64,000 nucleotides of DNA. Source: Candidatus Thioglobus sp. GTDB taxonomy: Bacteria > Pseudomonadota > Gammaproteobacteria > PS1 > Pseudothioglobaceae. The first letter of the stretch is position 1, and each line of letters opens with the position of its first letter. Made by a program: the position numbers and the translations under genes. Positions 1,566 to 52,890 of the stretch are shown here, piece after piece. The notes beneath the pieces were generated by a model. That model saw only the letters and a program-made list of their open reading frames with translations. It was not told where the DNA came from and did no database searches. The stretch spans positions 14,079-78,078 of the forward strand of contig JAPYSK010000001.1 in NCBI GenBank assembly GCA_029936515.1, written 5' to 3'.

Positions 1566-2573
1566 TTATCTAAATGGAGCTGAGTATAGAATACCACCAT
1601 CTGACCATAGTGCGTTAACACCACGAGCAATACCAATTGGAGTGTTTAATCCAATATTGCGCTCAAAGCTTTCAGAGTAGTTACCTACCTGCTTAATGAT
1701 CTGGTAAGTCCAGTCTGAATTCAAACCAACATACTCATGAGTGCTTCCAGAACGACCCATTAAGCGCTCACGCTCAGGGTTATTAGAAACATCATCAACA
1801 GTTGCACTAGTAACACCAATCTCTTCAGCAGTAATCATAGCGTTAAGAGACCACCTTACGATGTTAAACCATGCATCGTCACCTTGACGAACAACAGGAC
1901 CTAGAGGCTCTTTAGAAATGATTTCTGGCAATACAACGTGCTCAGAAGGATCGTTAGAACCTGCACGCATTGAATATAATCCAGATGCATCAGTTGTAAG
2001 AACGTCACAACGGCCAGCTTCATAGTTAGATAGAGTTTGAGCATTCGTATCAGAAACAACAGAGTTGTAGTCGATTCCGTTTGATTTACCCCAGTCAGCT
2101 AAGTTTAACTCAGTAGTTGTACCAGCCTGAATACAAACAGCCGCACCACCTAACTCCAGAGCGCTAGAAATACCTAGAGAAGACTTAACCATAAAGCCTT
2201 GTCCGTCATAGTAGTTAACACCAGCAAAGTTAAGACCTAGTGAAGCGTCACGAGTTATTGTCCAAGTAGTGTTTCTAGACAACATATCGATTTCACCAGA
2301 TTGAAGTGCAGTGAATCTTTCTTTAGCAGTTAATGGTACAAACTTAACTTTAGTTGCATCGCCAAGTGTTGCAGCAGCAACAGCACGACAAACGTCAACG
2401 TCAATACCAGTCCATGTGCCAGAAGAGTCAGCAGAAGAGAATCCAGCTAGACCTTTAGATACACCACAAGATAGGTGACCTTTTGCCTGAACATCGCTCA
2501 AAGTAGAAGCCTGTACACCAAGTGCACCGACAACTAATAATGAAGCAGCAGACAATTTTAGTAATTGTTTCAT
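1566..2573 (-). CDS. aapJ: Amino acid ABC transporter periplasmic binding protein AapJ/BztA
   Basis: Signal peptide; GIDVDVCRAVAAA, RFTALQSGEIDMLSRNTTWT, ISKEPLGPVVRQGD. Start moved to ATG 2573, which has an AAGGAG RBS. Confidence 0.92.
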   Translation of the reverse strand: MKQLLKLSAASLLVVGALGVQASTLSDVQAKGHLSCGVSKGLAGFSSADSSGTWTGIDVDVCRAVAAATLGDATKVKFVPLTAKERFTALQSGEIDMLSRNTTWTITRDASLGLNFAGVNYYDGQGFMVKSSLGISSALELGGAAVCIQAGTTTELNLADWGKSNGIDYNSVVSDTNAQTLSNYEAGRCDVLTTDASGLYSMRAGSNDPSEHVVLPEIISKEPLGPVVRQGDDAWFNIVRWSLNAMITAEEIGVTSATVDDVSNNPERERLMGRSGSTHEYVGLNSDWTYQIIKQVGNYSESFERNIGLNTPIGIARGVNALWSDGGILYSAPFR

Positions 2574-2914
2574 ATATATCTCCTTAATAAGTTTCAAAGT
2601 ATAACAATCCTCTTCAATTAAATGAGGATTACAGAAATTTTATCACTACTTTGGTGACTTAATGCTTATATTTAAATAAAAATAGAAATCAATTCACCCT
2701 TCTCACACTTATTAAATACAGTTATTTATATAAAAATAGAGTAGTTTGAACTGTTTTTTTTGGATAAATAAAATTGAATTAAATTCAACTGATGTAGTTC
2801 ATCCTTGTTTAGATATTTAGATTAATTTACTCCATAAAACAAGATCAGAAGATTAATTTTCCAAAAAAATAAATTTATAAAAAAACAATATAAATCAATA
2901 ACTTATCATTTTAA

Positions 2915-2995
2915 TAGTTATTAATTACCTCTATTTTTATTAATGGTATAAAATAACTATAGTTATTAATTACCTATAGTGGTATAAAATAACTA
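2915..2995. promoter_or_regulatory. Array of direct and inverted 16-bp repeats (candidate operator) upstream of HTH-nadE
   Basis: TAGTTATTAATTACCT at 2915 and 2960; TGGTATAAAATAACTA at 2944 and 2980; perfect palindrome AATAACTATAGTTATT at 2952-2967. Confidence 0.7.
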
Positions 2996-3018
2996 ATATA
3001 TACTTAAATTAACAATAT

Positions 3019-4896
3019 ATGATGAATAAGAAAACAACTGAATACCTTGTTCTAGTGCGCCAAAAAACGGGTTTTTCTGACTATAAAATTGCTCAAAAAT
3101 ATGATATTAATCAATCAAATCTAAGTAAATATAGCTCCGGTAAGGCCGCTTTAAGTGAAACACATGCTTGGTTATTCGCTAATATCCTTGATATTGACCC
3201 AGCTGAAGTAGTCGCTAATACTAAATACGAGCACGCAATTAATACAGGGAATAATACGAAGGCTATATTTTGGCAAGAACAGCTTAATAAGATATTTTCT
3301 GATATAGAGCCTATCAAAATTCAAATAGCTCAATTTAATGCTATTGTTGGTGATATTGAATCAAATGCACAAAAAATGTTAAATTTGATTCATGGTGCTG
3401 CAGATTTAGGAGCACATTTAATAGTATTTCCTGAATTAGCGCTGACTGGGTATCCTCCTGAGGATCTTTTGTTTCGTGACGGATTTATAAACCAAGTTAA
3501 TGAACAGATTGATTTTCTTTGTAAATCAGTGCCTTCTTCTATTAGCGTTTTGTTTGGAGCACCAAACAAAACTAATGAGTCTCTTTTTAATAGTGCTTAC
3601 TGTATTCAAAAAAATCAAATTATTCACATTTACAATAAACAGGAACTTCCTAATTACGGTGTTTTTGATGAAAAACGTTATTTCTCACCTGGTGATGAAT
3701 CTTTTGTATTTGAGTGTCAGAAAACTAAAATTGGTGTTTTAATTTGTGAAGATCAATGGGTTGAATGGCCTATTTCTAAACTTTGTCAATACAATGTTGA
3801 TATAGTTATATCGATTAATGCATCACCTTTTCAATCTGAAAAACATAATGAGCGATTAGAGATATGCAAGAATTACGCCTCAACATTCGATATTTCGTTT
3901 ATTTACGTCAATATGGTTGGCGGACAAGACGAAGTAGTTTTTGACGGAAACTCTTTTGTAGTTAACGAAAATGGGGAGATTACCCTTCAACTGCCTGAGT
4001 TTGAAGAACTTAATTGTCTTCATACTAACTCTATTGAAGCACTGGAATCACCTAGTGAAGAGAAATCTATTTACTCTGCACTAGTCTTAGCTACACGTGA
4101 TTACATTCAAAAAAACTCTTTTAATGGCGCCCTAATTGGTTTATCAGGTGGAATTGATTCTGCTTTAACGCTTGCAGTAGCAGTGGATGCAATTGGCGCT
4201 GATAATGTTCATGCAGTGATGATGCCCTATGAATTTACATCTAATATGAGTCTTGAAGATTCTAAATTACAAGCTCAAAGCCAAGGAGTACAATTTTCAA
4301 GTATTGATATTCATACTATGGTCGATTCTTTCAATTTATCATTAAAAGACCTTTTTGTGAATACCTCTTTGGATTCAACTGAAGAAAACATTCAAGCCAG
4401 AGTTAGAGGAACATTACTTATGGCGTTATCTAATAAATATCATAAAATTGTCTTAGCAACAGGAAATAAGTCTGAAATGGCTGTAGGTTATGCCACACTG
4501 TACGGTGATATGTGTGGAGGGTTTGCGCCACTTAAGGATATTTCGAAAACTATGGTATATAAGCTTTCGAACTATAGAAACTCAATATCAAAAGTTATTC
4601 CAGAGCGTGTTATTACGCGCCCTCCTTCTGCAGAACTGGCACCTAATCAAGTTGATCAAGATACGCTGCCTTCTTACGATGTTTTGGATGATATTTTGAC
4701 ACGATTTGTTGAAATGAAACAATCTGTTAGCAAAATTACTGAGCAAGGCCATAATTTTGAAGTTGTTAACAAAGTAACTTCAATGATTCTTAAAAATGAA
4801 TACAAGAGGCGTCAGTCAGCTCCGGGACCAAAAGTAAGTAGCAATGCTTTCGGCAAGGAAAGGAGATACCCTATGACATCAAAGTTTTTGCCTTAA
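3019..4896 (+). CDS. nadE: Glutamine-dependent NAD+ synthetase with an N-terminal XRE/phage-repressor-like HTH domain
   Basis: Nitrilase-fold glutaminase (FPELALTGYPPEDL, YNKQELPNYGVFDEKRYF, ICED); synthetase motifs GLSGGIDS, ENIQARVRG, ATGNKSE, GYATLYGD; extra ~95 aa with HTH pattern SDYKIAQKYDINQSNLSKYSSGK. Confidence 0.93.
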   Translation: MMNKKTTEYLVLVRQKTGFSDYKIAQKYDINQSNLSKYSSGKAALSETHAWLFANILDIDPAEVVANTKYEHAINTGNNTKAIFWQEQLNKIFSDIEPIKIQIAQFNAIVGDIESNAQKMLNLIHGAADLGAHLIVFPELALTGYPPEDLLFRDGFINQVNEQIDFLCKSVPSSISVLFGAPNKTNESLFNSAYCIQKNQIIHIYNKQELPNYGVFDEKRYFSPGDESFVFECQKTKIGVLICEDQWVEWPISKLCQYNVDIVISINASPFQSEKHNERLEICKNYASTFDISFIYVNMVGGQDEVVFDGNSFVVNENGEITLQLPEFEELNCLHTNSIEALESPSEEKSIYSALVLATRDYIQKNSFNGALIGLSGGIDSALTLAVAVDAIGADNVHAVMMPYEFTSNMSLEDSKLQAQSQGVQFSSIDIHTMVDSFNLSLKDLFVNTSLDSTEENIQARVRGTLLMALSNKYHKIVLATGNKSEMAVGYATLYGDMCGGFAPLKDISKTMVYKLSNYRNSISKVIPERVITRPPSAELAPNQVDQDTLPSYDVLDDILTRFVEMKQSVSKITEQGHNFEVVNKVTSMILKNEYKRRQSAPGPKVSSNAFGKERRYPMTSKFLP

Positions 4897-4900
4897 AGAT

Positions 4901-6193
4901 TTAATTACTAAACACTTTAACTAATCCAGCAGCTTTATGCTTAGTTTCAGCTAGTTCTTTGTCTGGTATTGAGTCGTATACAATTCCGGCACCTGCCCGA
5001 AAAGTTAATGTATTTTCCTGATGAATAAAGCTACGAATGAGGATGTTAAAGTCCATTTTTCCATTTTGGCTTAAATACCCTACTGATCCTGTATATGCTG
5101 ACCTTGGCATCTGTTCTAGTTCGCTAATTATTTGCATACAGCGTACCTTGGGACAGCCAGTGATTGTTCCTCCAGGAAAGAGAGCTCTAACAATTTCACT
5201 TACACCTACATTTTTTCTTAGTTTACCTTTGATATTTGACACTATATGATGCACATAAGGATAAGTTTCTAGTGTCATAACCTCGTTAACAAAGACACTG
5301 CCATATTCACATACCCTGCCCATATCATTTCTTTCCAGATCAAGAAGCATTACATGTTCAGCTATTTCTTTTGGATGACTTATTAGATTCTCCTTTTGAG
5401 TGTCATCTTCAGAGCCTTTTCCTCGAGGATGTGTGCCCGCAATAGGTCTTGTTTGTAAGACGCCATCATTGACACTAAAAAGCCTTTCTGGAGAAGATGA
5501 AATTATGCTGAAATTTTCATACTGAATTAGCGCGGAAAAAGGAGCTGGATTAGCATTTTTTAAGGCGGAATAGATTATTGTTGAATTTATTTTTTCACTA
5601 AGTTTATATTGCCATTGTCTCGATAGGTTGACCTGAAAAACGTCACCCGAAACAATATAATCTAAGCAGGCCTTTACTCCATCGGTAAATTTTTCTTGGT
5701 TTTCTTCTGATAACTTTCCTTTTATGGATTTTTCAGGTATCGGTTTGGTAAGTTTAATATCTGATAATATTAAATTAATGCGATCTTCATTGTCATCTTG
5801 ATCAATAAGATATGTCTTATCTAGCTGATGATCGATAATGATAGCAGAGGGTATTTTTACTGCATAAGCAATTGGAAGATTAGATCTATAAACCTCGTAA
5901 GATAAGGAGGGCTCAATTTGTTCTATTAATTCATACGAGAGATAGACAAACCACCCACCAATAAACGGCAGATCAGAATTTAAATTATTTGGTTTAAGTT
6001 GATTTTTAAGCTCATTTAAAAAATCAAAGTCAGAAAAGCTATTAAGAATAATACTTTCACCAGGAAAAGCAAACAATATAGAGTATCTATTGAAGTCGTT
6101 ATGATTTACACTTTCAAGTAAAAAAGGATATCTCTCACTATTTAGATAACAAAAAGAAGCTAAATCAACTTTTTGTATTTCTAGAATTTTCAC
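4901..6193 (-). CDS. pabB: Aminodeoxychorismate synthase component I (chorismate-binding PabB/TrpE family)
   Basis: GDVFQVNLSR, TRPIAGTHPRG, EHVMLLDLERNDMGRVC, FPGGTITGCPKVR, RAGAGIVYDS; the PGGTITG variant and short length fit PabB-like better than TrpE. Confidence 0.75.
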   Translation of the reverse strand: MKILEIQKVDLASFCYLNSERYPFLLESVNHNDFNRYSILFAFPGESIILNSFSDFDFLNELKNQLKPNNLNSDLPFIGGWFVYLSYELIEQIEPSLSYEVYRSNLPIAYAVKIPSAIIIDHQLDKTYLIDQDDNEDRINLILSDIKLTKPIPEKSIKGKLSEENQEKFTDGVKACLDYIVSGDVFQVNLSRQWQYKLSEKINSTIIYSALKNANPAPFSALIQYENFSIISSSPERLFSVNDGVLQTRPIAGTHPRGKGSEDDTQKENLISHPKEIAEHVMLLDLERNDMGRVCEYGSVFVNEVMTLETYPYVHHIVSNIKGKLRKNVGVSEIVRALFPGGTITGCPKVRCMQIISELEQMPRSAYTGSVGYLSQNGKMDFNILIRSFIHQENTLTFRAGAGIVYDSIPDKELAETKHKAAGLVKVFSN

Positions 6194-51942: not shown

Positions 51943-52890
51943 GTGAATAAGAAGCTTTATCAAACTGTTATAGACTATATCAATAATAAAATCACTAGTG
52001 GAGAGCTATCAATTGGTGATGTTATTCCTTCTGAATCTCAACTTTCAAAGCGATTAAATGTGAGTATTGGAACTGTCAGAAAAGCCATCGATAAGCTTGA
52101 AAATAGTAATATACTTTTTCGTCATCATGGTAAAGGAACATATGTAAACTTAAACTTAAAAACTATGAAAACTGACTATAAAAAAGAGCGCTCTGACCTT
52201 GCCGCTGCTTTTAGGTGGGCCGCAAGACTTAATATGCATGAAGCTGTTGCAAATCACTTCAGCTTGGCAGTTTCAGATGATGGCTCACAATTCCTATTAA
52301 ATCCTATCGGGATGAATTTTTCTCAGATTTGTGCAAGTGACCTTATTCTTCTAGATTCTAATGACCCAACAACAATGTCACAACCCAATGCCCCTGATCC
52401 TTCAGCTTGGGCTATACACGGGGCAATGCATAGAAATAATCCTCAAGCCAGATGTATTCTTCATGTCCATCCTAAATATGCAACCATTCTCGCCAGTCTT
52501 GAAGATAAGACCATGAAGCCTATCGATCAAAACACAATGCGCTTTTATGAAAAGGTATCAATTGATCATGACTATAGCGGTATGGGTCTTGGCAAAGAGG
52601 CTGAGAGATTAAGCACTATCTTGGGTGATAATTCTGTTCTGTTGATGGGTAATCATGGAGTTCTGACCGCTGCTAAGACGGTAGCCAAAGCGTTTGACGA
52701 CCTTTATTACTTTGAACGCTCCTGTGAAAATTTAATTGGGGCTTATCAAACTGGTAAAAACTTACACTTAGTAAGTCATGAGATTGCTACAAAAACGGCT
52801 CAGCAATGGCAAGACTATGACGCCTCAGACCTTCACTTTGATGCATTAAAAAGAATCTTGGACAAGGAAGAGCCTGACTACAAAATTTAG
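51943..52890 (+). CDS. GntR winged-HTH fused to a class II aldolase/adducin domain
   Basis: Residues 1-68 GntR (IPSESQLSKRLNVSIGTVRKAIDKL...GKGTYV); residues 75-315 aldolase II (NHFS, ILHVHP, GNHGV zinc ligands). Confidence 0.88.
   Translation: MNKKLYQTVIDYINNKITSGELSIGDVIPSESQLSKRLNVSIGTVRKAIDKLENSNILFRHHGKGTYVNLNLKTMKTDYKKERSDLAAAFRWAARLNMHEAVANHFSLAVSDDGSQFLLNPIGMNFSQICASDLILLDSNDPTTMSQPNAPDPSAWAIHGAMHRNNPQARCILHVHPKYATILASLEDKTMKPIDQNTMRFYEKVSIDHDYSGMGLGKEAERLSTILGDNSVLLMGNHGVLTAAKTVAKAFDDLYYFERSCENLIGAYQTGKNLHLVSHEIATKTAQQWQDYDASDLHFDALKRILDKEEPDYKI

Follow-up and report, generated by a model that had tools for sequence, protein, structure and literature searches.

The intergenic region upstream of nadE in a 64,000-nucleotide stretch of a Candidatus Thioglobus genome (contig JAPYSK010000001.1, hereafter the window) contains an array of four 16-bp sites that probably serves nadE as the operator region for its autoregulation. 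The encoded protein, HTH-NadE, joins a lambda-cI/Cro-like helix-turn-helix (HTH) module to nicotinamide adenine dinucleotide (NAD) synthetase, and the comparison of loci favours negative autoregulation by the fused HTH. The initial annotation of this DNA had proposed multiple operators for the fused HTH, arranged as in phage multi-operator switches. The proposal is supported by the co-occurrence of sites and fusion, the rarity of the sites elsewhere, the predicted fold of the module, and the conservation of the HTH. The gene and the predicted operators are as follows:

3019..4896, + strand: HTH-nadE, 625 aa, HTH module followed by CN_hydrolase glutaminase and NAD synthase
2915..2930: predicted operator O1 (copy A1, TAGTTATTAATTACCT), 16-bp dyad TRGT-N8-ACYA with one mismatch; near-group site at the same position (−107/−104)
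2944..2959: predicted operator O2 (copy B1, TGGTATAAAATAACTA), perfect dyad, exact copy of O4
2960..2975: predicted operator O3 (copy A2, TAGTTATTAATTACCT), spans the −35 region of the proposed promoter
2980..2995: predicted operator O4 (copy B2, TGGTATAAAATAACTA), perfect dyad, most conserved element, overlaps the proposed extended −10 and transcription start

The Array Consists of Four Copies of One Dyad

Direct reading of positions 2500-3300 confirmed the arrangement described in the initial annotation. Box A occurs as an exact duplicate at 2915-2930 and 2960-2975, and box B at 2944-2959 and 2980-2995. The order is A-13-B-A-4-B, with spacers of 13 nt and 4 nt; the first B abuts the second A, which creates a perfect 16-nt palindrome (AATAACTATAGTTATT, 2952-2967), and 23 nt separate the end of the array from the ATG at 3019. 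An independent repeat search recovered the same direct and inverted repeats. The alternating orientation of A and B that had been noted is also seen, but both boxes belong to a single kind of site and differ only in the order of their TAGT and TGGT halves. Each box is one imperfect 16-bp dyad, T(A/G)GT-N8(A/T)-AC(C/T)A, made up of these two halves. We adopted this single-dyad definition because sites of deep lineages, TAGTTAATTTATACTA and TAGTATTTTTTAACTA, have the inverted-repeat ends TAGT...ACTA. The array in the window can be read as four dimer-type predicted operators, O1 to O4.

The degenerate pattern TAGTTATTNNNTACC, with up to one mismatch allowed, had five matches in the window, four of which were in the array and perfect. 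The expectation was 0.35, and none of 100 shuffles reached five matches. In a position weight matrix scan of the window, the four array sites scored 20.9-21.5 bits and all other positions 14 bits or less, with no further site above background. Thus, both the pattern count and the matrix scores place the array beyond chance.

Sites Co-occur with the HTH-NadE Fusion

A scan of species-representative genomes yielded 79 fused loci, all from Thioglobaceae, including Ca. Thioglobus, Pseudothioglobus, Ruthia, Ruthturnera, Thiodubiliella, Bathymodiolus symbionts, and metagenome-assembled genomes of SUP05/Arctic96BD-19. Altogether, 87 fused loci were compared, counting the window and seven deeper loci (L080 and L084-L089), and L090 served as the unfused control. 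The loci were grouped into 30 near-group loci (close relatives), 50 more distant Thioglobaceae (the distant group), and deep lineages; the proteins of L080 and L084 are ca. 43% identical to that of the window. When the enzyme core of the window protein was searched against databases, the best 120 matches were all fused, with lengths of 613-627 aa or as truncated calls. A search seeded with the divergent fused protein P0130 returned more fused lineages at 42-65% identity to P0130, and then unfused NadE proteins (from Acinetobacter and others) at ca. 45%; a metagenome scan with the N-terminus of P0130 gave no matches. The possibility that L034 and L080 are paralogues in one genome was ruled out, as they come from different assemblies.

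At least one site was present within 200 nt upstream of nadE in 85 of the 87 fused loci, a result that passes the check for co-occurrence with the HTH extension proposed in the initial annotation, and the proximal, O4-like site was present in nearly all 87. Perfect dyads numbered 114 in the 200-nt upstream regions (17.4 kb from 87 fused loci) versus three in 545 kb elsewhere; when one mismatch was allowed, there were 198 upstream (11.4 per kb) versus 99 elsewhere (0.18 per kb). Essentially no sites were found in ca. 480 kb of locus flanks, and Pfam annotation revealed no other NAD-pathway gene in the window. The initial annotation had also raised the case of a NadE without the HTH. At the unfused nadE of Acinetobacter baylyi, a single distant genome, there was no array, only one match with one mismatch.

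The genes that surround nadE vary. In the close clade, the upstream neighbour is an aapJ-like solute-binding protein gene, divergent and ca. 400 nt away. In the distant group, it is a Sel1-repeat open reading frame (ORF), and the deep lineage has a Fic-like_C gene together with ppsA. The downstream neighbour is pabB, gcvP, or ileS, the latter two in the deep lineage. The dyad sites stay with nadE whatever the neighbours. Because the sites stay while the flanking genes change, they are, as judged from these loci, tied to the fused gene and not to its neighbours across deep evolutionary distance. The sites co-occur with a DNA-binding fusion and lie at its own predicted promoter, the pattern expected of autoregulatory operators. 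An effect of the array on aapJ, which had also been suggested, is not supported, since the array remains with nadE where another gene is located upstream and is more than 250 nt from the ends of the aapJ RNA contigs.

Two of the variable neighbours can be described further. In most SUP05-type genomes, a 117-aa Sel1-repeat ORF is located between the aapJ-like gene and nadE (L064 2409-2762, minus strand, with equivalents in 37 loci); in the window clade this ORF is missing, and the intergenic region is ca. 400 nt long with no ORF. A Fic-like_C protein of 159-184 aa is encoded divergently upstream of HTH-nadE in L080 (3186-3713), L084 (1697-2224), L085 (279-833), and L087 (1334-1813, minus strand throughout). 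A Fic-like_C gene is also found 1-2 kb upstream in a few SUP05 loci, and no homologue is present in the 64-kb window.

As for database records, the full-length entries for this nadE are labelled only "NAD+ synthase", which leaves the HTH invisible in annotation. Many gene calls (including P0027, P0028, P0034, P0036, P0041, P0043, P0225, P0226, and P0281) are frameshifted stubs or start at internal codons.

Geometry and Conservation of the Sites

Positions of site starts relative to the ATG, and start-to-start spacings, were as follows:

Window: −104, −75, −59, −39; spacing 29, 16, 20
L080: −127, −98, −81, −61; spacing 29, 17, 20
L084: −127, −98, −81, −61; spacing 29, 17, 20

In L080 and L084, the equivalent of O1 is found at −127 and a weaker equivalent of O2 (TAGGTAAAATATACCA) at −98. 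L085 is similar, with a weak O2, and the equivalents of O3 and O4 are 20 bp apart in all three loci. Since the spacing in the window recurs in L080 and L084, the four-operator layout looks ancient. Among the spacings between adjacent sites that were counted in the 30 near-group loci, 21 were of 20 bp, start to start.

In the upstream alignment of the 30 close relatives, TAGTTATTnnTTACCtaTAGTGGTATAAAATAACTA is nearly invariant, and GTGGTATAAAATAACTA at O4 is near-invariant across the same loci. Most close relatives keep O1, O3, and O4; their O2 is degenerate, with the right half AACTA alone retained. The exact-duplicate four-site state, with a perfect O2, is limited to the window, L001, L002, and L017, and in this subclade O1 and O2 are, on the evidence of the alignment, homogenised to exact copies of O3 and O4. 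In the 50 distant Thioglobaceae, the upstream region follows the pattern ATGGTAnTTTTACCA...GGTATTTTTTAACTA-N21-GTGGTAAAAAATAACTATAATAGGTAAAAAATAC, and a conserved half-like site follows the −10 element.

One member of the window subclade, L017 (JAAZZI010000092.1, ca. 2x coverage), has an array identical to that of the window, yet the N-terminus of its nadE is 81% and its aapJ-like gene 66% identical. This mismatch between the array and the coding divergence suggests promoter-region recombination or a chimeric low-coverage contig.

The N-Terminal HTH Module

The module is encoded by the first part of the gene:

3019..3312, + strand: 98-aa XRE-type HTH module, six helices, presumed recognition helix INQSNLSKY

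An AlphaFold (AF2) model of residues 1-152, built with 22 homologues, had a predicted local distance difference test score of 86.5. The helices of the HTH domain in the model are formed by residues 4-17, 21-27, 32-40, and 47-57; two extra helices (61-76 and 79-93) precede the first strand of the glutaminase domain. As modelled, the module has the five-helix lambda-repressor-like fold, with a turn between helices 2 and 3. The top Foldseek matches in PDB were the N-terminal domain of lambda cI (cI-NTD), C.AhdI, C.BclI, C.Esp1396I, ClgR, and ImmR, with a probability of ~1.0. The module is thus predicted to resemble lambda cI-NTD and the C-proteins of restriction-modification systems. Sequence searches were marginal: XRE proteins in PDB were matched with E 0.019 or weaker, and the NCBIfam model of phage RstR with E 0.003, far below its cutoff. 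Precomputed PF01381 matches exist on many orthologues.

Within the family, residues 1-60 have a mean identity of 78%, compared with 74% in the synthetase domain and 58% in the glutaminase domain. No other segment of the protein is as well conserved and, on this measure, the HTH is under strong purifying selection; it is, therefore, no decaying appendage. The presumed recognition helix, INQSN(L/F)(S/N)KY, is kept in deep lineages. It is the conserved 16-bp dyads beside the gene that suggest sequence-specific dyad binding by the module.

When residues 1-98 were used to search a protein library, 81 proteins were found at E≤0.001, a few of which were fused NadE. The search also returned a small family of stand-alone proteins of 110-160 aa that contain the whole 95-aa module at 40-46% identity. 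Among these relatives (P0124-P0129 and P0137; L081 1336-1821, L082 256-1037), several contain a hydrophobic stretch and have the C-terminal sequence ...FILC or ...ILC. One is encoded divergently to a series of tiny ORFs, as in a mobile-element switch, and two are in tandem. L081 and L082 resemble mobile-element or repressor contexts, and their upstream repeats differ from the nadE dyad; they provided no independent test of specificity.

The Enzyme Core and the Gene

The remainder of the protein matched CN_hydrolase (PF00795, E 2.4e-28) and NAD_synthase (PF02540, E 1.7e-69) in Pfam, and the NCBIfam equivalog NF010588 over aa 99-623 with 724.6 bits (cutoff 479). The glutaminase and ATP-loop motifs FPELALTGY, YNKQELPNYGVFDE, VLICEDQW, and GLSGGIDSAL are intact in the translation; we take them to represent the context of the Glu-Lys-Cys glutaminase triad and the SGGxDS ATP-binding loop. 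The nearest PDB entries are 5kha (E 3.6e-165) and 4f4h (E 2e-143), of 549 and 565 aa, respectively, and both contain two chains. The core thus appears to be a type-2 (~540-aa, dimeric-class) glutamine-dependent NadE. Its dimeric state is suggested by the size class, by the two-chain entries, and by the description of the ~540-aa NadE-Gln class as dimeric (PMC7196632).

Downstream of nadE, pabB is encoded on the minus strand at 4901-6193. Since pabB converges on nadE from the opposite strand, nadE is monocistronic. In nearly all relatives there is an in-frame stop a few codons 5' of the ATG; therefore, the start codon is fixed and the array is outside of the coding region.

Promoter, Transcripts, and Upstream Elements

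The following features were assigned around the array:

2980..2988, + strand: proposed extended −10 element, TGGTATAAA (TGnTATAAA), inside O4
2995..2997, + strand: approximate nadE transcription start, placed from a single contig end (weak to moderate)
2893..2905, + strand: conserved upstream box AATCAATAACTTA / AAATCAATAACTTAT, perfect match to the IHF consensus WATCAANNNNTTR, ca. 125 nt upstream

A consensus promoter scanner found no canonical −35/−10 pair on the + strand of the array. A canonical σ70 promoter in the array was, therefore, rejected, and the sequence was reinterpreted as an extended −10 promoter; the absence of the pair fits such a promoter, because extended −10 promoters need no −35 element. 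Transcript data came from contigs of eight marine metatranscriptomes. The most upstream nadE RNA contig (run X29) spans positions 2997-3192 and begins 9 nt past the −10 hexamer. No genuine RNA contig covered 2661-2996 in the eight metatranscriptomes; apparent RNA at 2863-2894 (run X25) was spurious and due to 31-mer low-complexity matches. RNA depth was 5-30 for nadE versus 10^3-10^4 for the aapJ-like gene, the RNA of which ends near 2580-2660. The low depth of nadE RNA is compatible with a repressed promoter. The aapJ-like gene itself, which codes for a family-3 solute-binding protein (1566-2573, minus strand), had an RNA depth 100-1000 times that of nadE.

In the window, the single contig end, which is modest evidence, puts O4 over the −10/+1 region and O3 over the −35 region. 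In the distant group, the proximal operator shares its right end with a perfect TATAAT. Such locations are typical of repression by promoter occlusion.

Of the 87 loci, 66 have a + strand match to the IHF consensus at −119 to −148, and the box is visible in both alignments. The density of such matches is 11.5 per kb there versus 0.23 per kb elsewhere, a 49-fold local enrichment. The box at 2893-2905 also holds an AGTTAT-type half-site on the other strand. Based on its known consensus, IHF may be the protein that binds this box, though the HTH or another protein is also a candidate.

A further palindrome that had been reported upstream, TTGAATTAAATTCAA at 2774-2788, was verified by direct reading. 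It is conserved at ca. −245 from nadE in the close (Pseudothioglobus-like) clade only and is not found in the distant group. It has no match to the operator dyad, and such a palindrome occurs in 19% of shuffles of the intergenic region. It is a separate element, possibly part of the aapJ promoter region.

Proposed Mechanism and Alternative Explanations

We infer that the fused HTH, and not another protein, binds the sites, and that this binding represses transcription. In the mechanism that we propose, the two HTH modules of one HTH-NadE dimer would recognise one 16-bp dyad. Dimers on O3 and O4, ca. two helical turns apart, would cover the −35 region, the extended −10 element, and the start near 2995-2997; their presence would exclude RNA polymerase, and nadE would be repressed. 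O1 and O2 would strengthen occupancy through higher-order binding, the cooperativity of which is suggested by the spacing of the sites, and a bend at the upstream IHF-consensus site may contribute. The outcome would be negative autoregulation of the terminal enzyme of NAD synthesis. In the most speculative step, DNA binding may respond to ligands of the enzyme (nicotinic acid adenine dinucleotide (NaAD), ATP, NAD+, or glutamine), by analogy with NadR, BirA, PutA, and RbkR. A more far-reaching version, which we regard as possible but doubtful, is that HTH-NadE constitutes an unrecognised family of NAD regulators beside NadR, NiaR, NrtR, and NadQ. It would then be a trigger enzyme whose catalytic or ligand state (NaAD/ATP-bound versus NAD+-bound or idle) sets the grip of the HTH on an ancient four-operator array, maybe bent by IHF.

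Several points weigh against negative autoregulation by the fused HTH. The support for it is all comparative. The A. baylyi control is one distant genome, where absence of the motif is expected under any hypothesis. The scans for sites covered the window and the locus flanks, and there may be sites at other genes as well as another regulator that recognises them. The nadE start is defined by one contig end, from a strain that is ~95% identical. The Pfam HTH_3 (PF01381) match on the window protein (aa 14-63, E 3.3e-4, 21.1 bits) is below the cutoff of 23, and every Foldseek E-value for the module is 0.02 or weaker. With respect to geometry, sites whose centres are 16 or 29 bp apart are out of helical phase. 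The distant group is remodelled: its two strong sites point the same way at a spacing of 36 bp, and a 14-bp palindrome, TGGTA-N4-TACCA, is present upstream. Across the loci compared, the motif appears to be universal and the exact architecture does not, with no single fixed nucleoprotein geometry conserved everywhere. Finally, the small Fic-like_C gene is located divergently upstream in L080, L084, L085, and L087, and at the greater distance given above in a few SUP05 loci.

The last point bears on an alternative in which the operators are real and are bound by a separately encoded factor, either a NAD-responsive regulator at another genomic location or the Fic-like_C protein (the Fic-like_C domain is presumably winged-helix-like), while the fused HTH has another target or role. 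The limited extent of the site scans leaves room for such a regulator. However, the Fic-like_C gene is found neither in the 64-kb window nor in most of the 87 loci, though the sites are there. Moreover, sites co-occur with the fusion and with the conserved recognition helix in every lineage sampled, and a fused HTH that is under the strongest purifying selection in the protein needs a target. Autoregulation is usual for XRE-type regulators. We consider a separately encoded factor unlikely.

If the bound HTH served chiefly to activate, or worked as a dual switch in the manner of lambda cI at PRM, this would account for the location of O1 and O2 upstream of the core promoter, where activators bind, and for the lack of a good −35 element. 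The fold matches include lambda cI-NTD with σ region 4 (1rio) and C-proteins; lambda cI and C-proteins are activators when occupancy is low and repressors when it is high. On the other hand, the invariant O4 overlaps the −10 element and the start, which is a repression-type position. The strongest site in the distant group overlaps TATAAT, with a further conserved half-site covering the predicted start, and the depth of nadE RNA is low. On balance, activation or dual switching as the main mode appears quite improbable, and repression by the fused HTH remains our preferred reading.

It is very improbable that the repeats act as RNA or DNA structure with no dedicated protein, be it as leader hairpins, an attenuator, or promoter, UP-element, or curvature sequence. 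The array, if transcribed, would fold into two hairpins (−20.4 kcal/mol, z = −3.6), B contains the −10-like TATAAA, and the spacers are A/T tracts. Yet no RNA contig covers the array in the eight metatranscriptomes. In L064, the corresponding region is unstructured (z = +0.54) because its sites share one orientation, and hairpins arise only where sites are inverted; what is conserved is sequence, not pairing. Rfam at permissive E-values returned noise only, no terminator-like site was found, and a −10 function cannot explain the recurrence of the same 16-bp dyad 60-110 nt upstream of the promoter.

A last alternative is that the exact copies are functionless products of a recent local duplication or conversion event, or of faulty assembly. 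It finds some support in the restriction of the A/A and B/B identity to the window, L001, L002, and L017, and in the ~2x-coverage L017 contig, whose coding sequence is far more divergent than its array. It is nevertheless scarcely credible and largely refuted by the conservation data, as independent assemblies and more than 20 DNA runs contain the sequence, the underlying O1, O3, and O4 and the four-site geometry appear to be ancient, and duplication or homogenisation accounts for the identity of the copies only, not for the existence of the sites.

Relation to Known Systems

Negative autoregulation by HTH-NadE would have parallels. NadR likewise carries an N-terminal HTH fused to an enzyme of NAD metabolism. 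The HTH of NadR is of the Cro/C1 type, and NadR binds dyad operators at promoters of NAD genes, its NAD box being TGTTTA-N6-TAAACA. The two differ in the enzymatic partner, which is NMN adenylyltransferase and ribosylnicotinamide kinase (NMNAT/RNK) in NadR and glutaminase and NAD synthetase here. They also differ in the operator, which is TRGT-N8-ACYA here, and in that the sole target seen here is the gene itself. Pfam and NCBIfam scans of the window protein gave no match to NadR-family domains, and the likeness is in design only.

In BirA, PutA, and RbkR, a metabolic enzyme with its own DNA-binding domain represses its own pathway or its own gene, as is predicted here. In the case of PutA, one intergenic region holds several copies of the operator. 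The DNA-binding fold is a winged helix in BirA and RbkR and a ribbon-helix-helix in PutA, in contrast to the XRE module of HTH-NadE, and the pathways differ too. Control by ligands is demonstrated for these three proteins and is conjecture here. Enzyme-repressors such as BirA, PutA, and NadR are textbook cases of direct metabolic feedback on transcription, and few families of them are known.

The best structural matches, lambda and 434 cI/Cro and the C-proteins, bind dyads as dimers, with adjacent operators ca. two turns apart over the promoter, and are autoregulatory. C.Esp1396I, which forms a tetramer on its operator (3clc), provides an example of higher-order binding. The cI and C-proteins are, however, small stand-alone regulators of mobile elements, while here the module is joined to a 527-aa housekeeping enzyme encoded by a chromosomal core gene, and the motif differs.

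With regard to other regulators of NAD metabolism, NrtR, NiaR, and NadQ control NAD biosynthesis genes via operators found by comparative genomics (PMC2330246, PMC2330245), and a regulatory role of NadR has been noted (PMC7196632). NrtR consists of a Nudix domain and a winged HTH, and NiaR of an HTH and a 3H domain; none of the three regulators is known to be joined to a pathway enzyme of this kind with its catalytic function intact. Nudix-like effector and 3H domains were not detected in the window protein by Pfam and NCBIfam scans. In archaeal RbkR, riboflavin kinase is fused to a DNA-binding domain (PMC5397151).

A full-text literature search found no published description of an HTH-NadE fusion or of NAD regulation in Thioglobus/SUP05, and neither a survey of the NADS family (PMC3376133) nor a paper on NadE and PII (PMC7196632) mentions an HTH. 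Fusion of an enzyme to its own repressor domain is a known design; what is new here is the enzyme involved, together with the motif and the layout of four operators.

In HTH-NadE, a repressor-type HTH is attached to the enzyme that completes NAD synthesis, and the predicted operators are directly legible in the genome sequence. The fusion and the operators are conserved throughout Thioglobaceae, in free-living SUP05, in Arctic96BD-19, and in clam and mussel symbionts, so that the regulatory logic would hold for ecologically dominant bacteria whose streamlined genomes encode very few transcription factors. If the more far-reaching version described above is true, the cellular NAD supply would directly tune transcription of nadE, and perhaps of a wider regulon, in SUP05/Arctic96BD-19 bacteria, whose abundance is among the highest of bacteria in the dark ocean and in vent symbioses. 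The system is compact, with one protein and 110 bp of DNA, and is suited to asking how a catalytic state is coupled to DNA binding. The motif can also be used for regulon definition in complete genomes.

The window contains a second fusion of an HTH to an enzyme domain, at 51943-52890, where a GntR-type HTH (aa 5-68) precedes a class II aldolase/adducin domain (aa 85-263).

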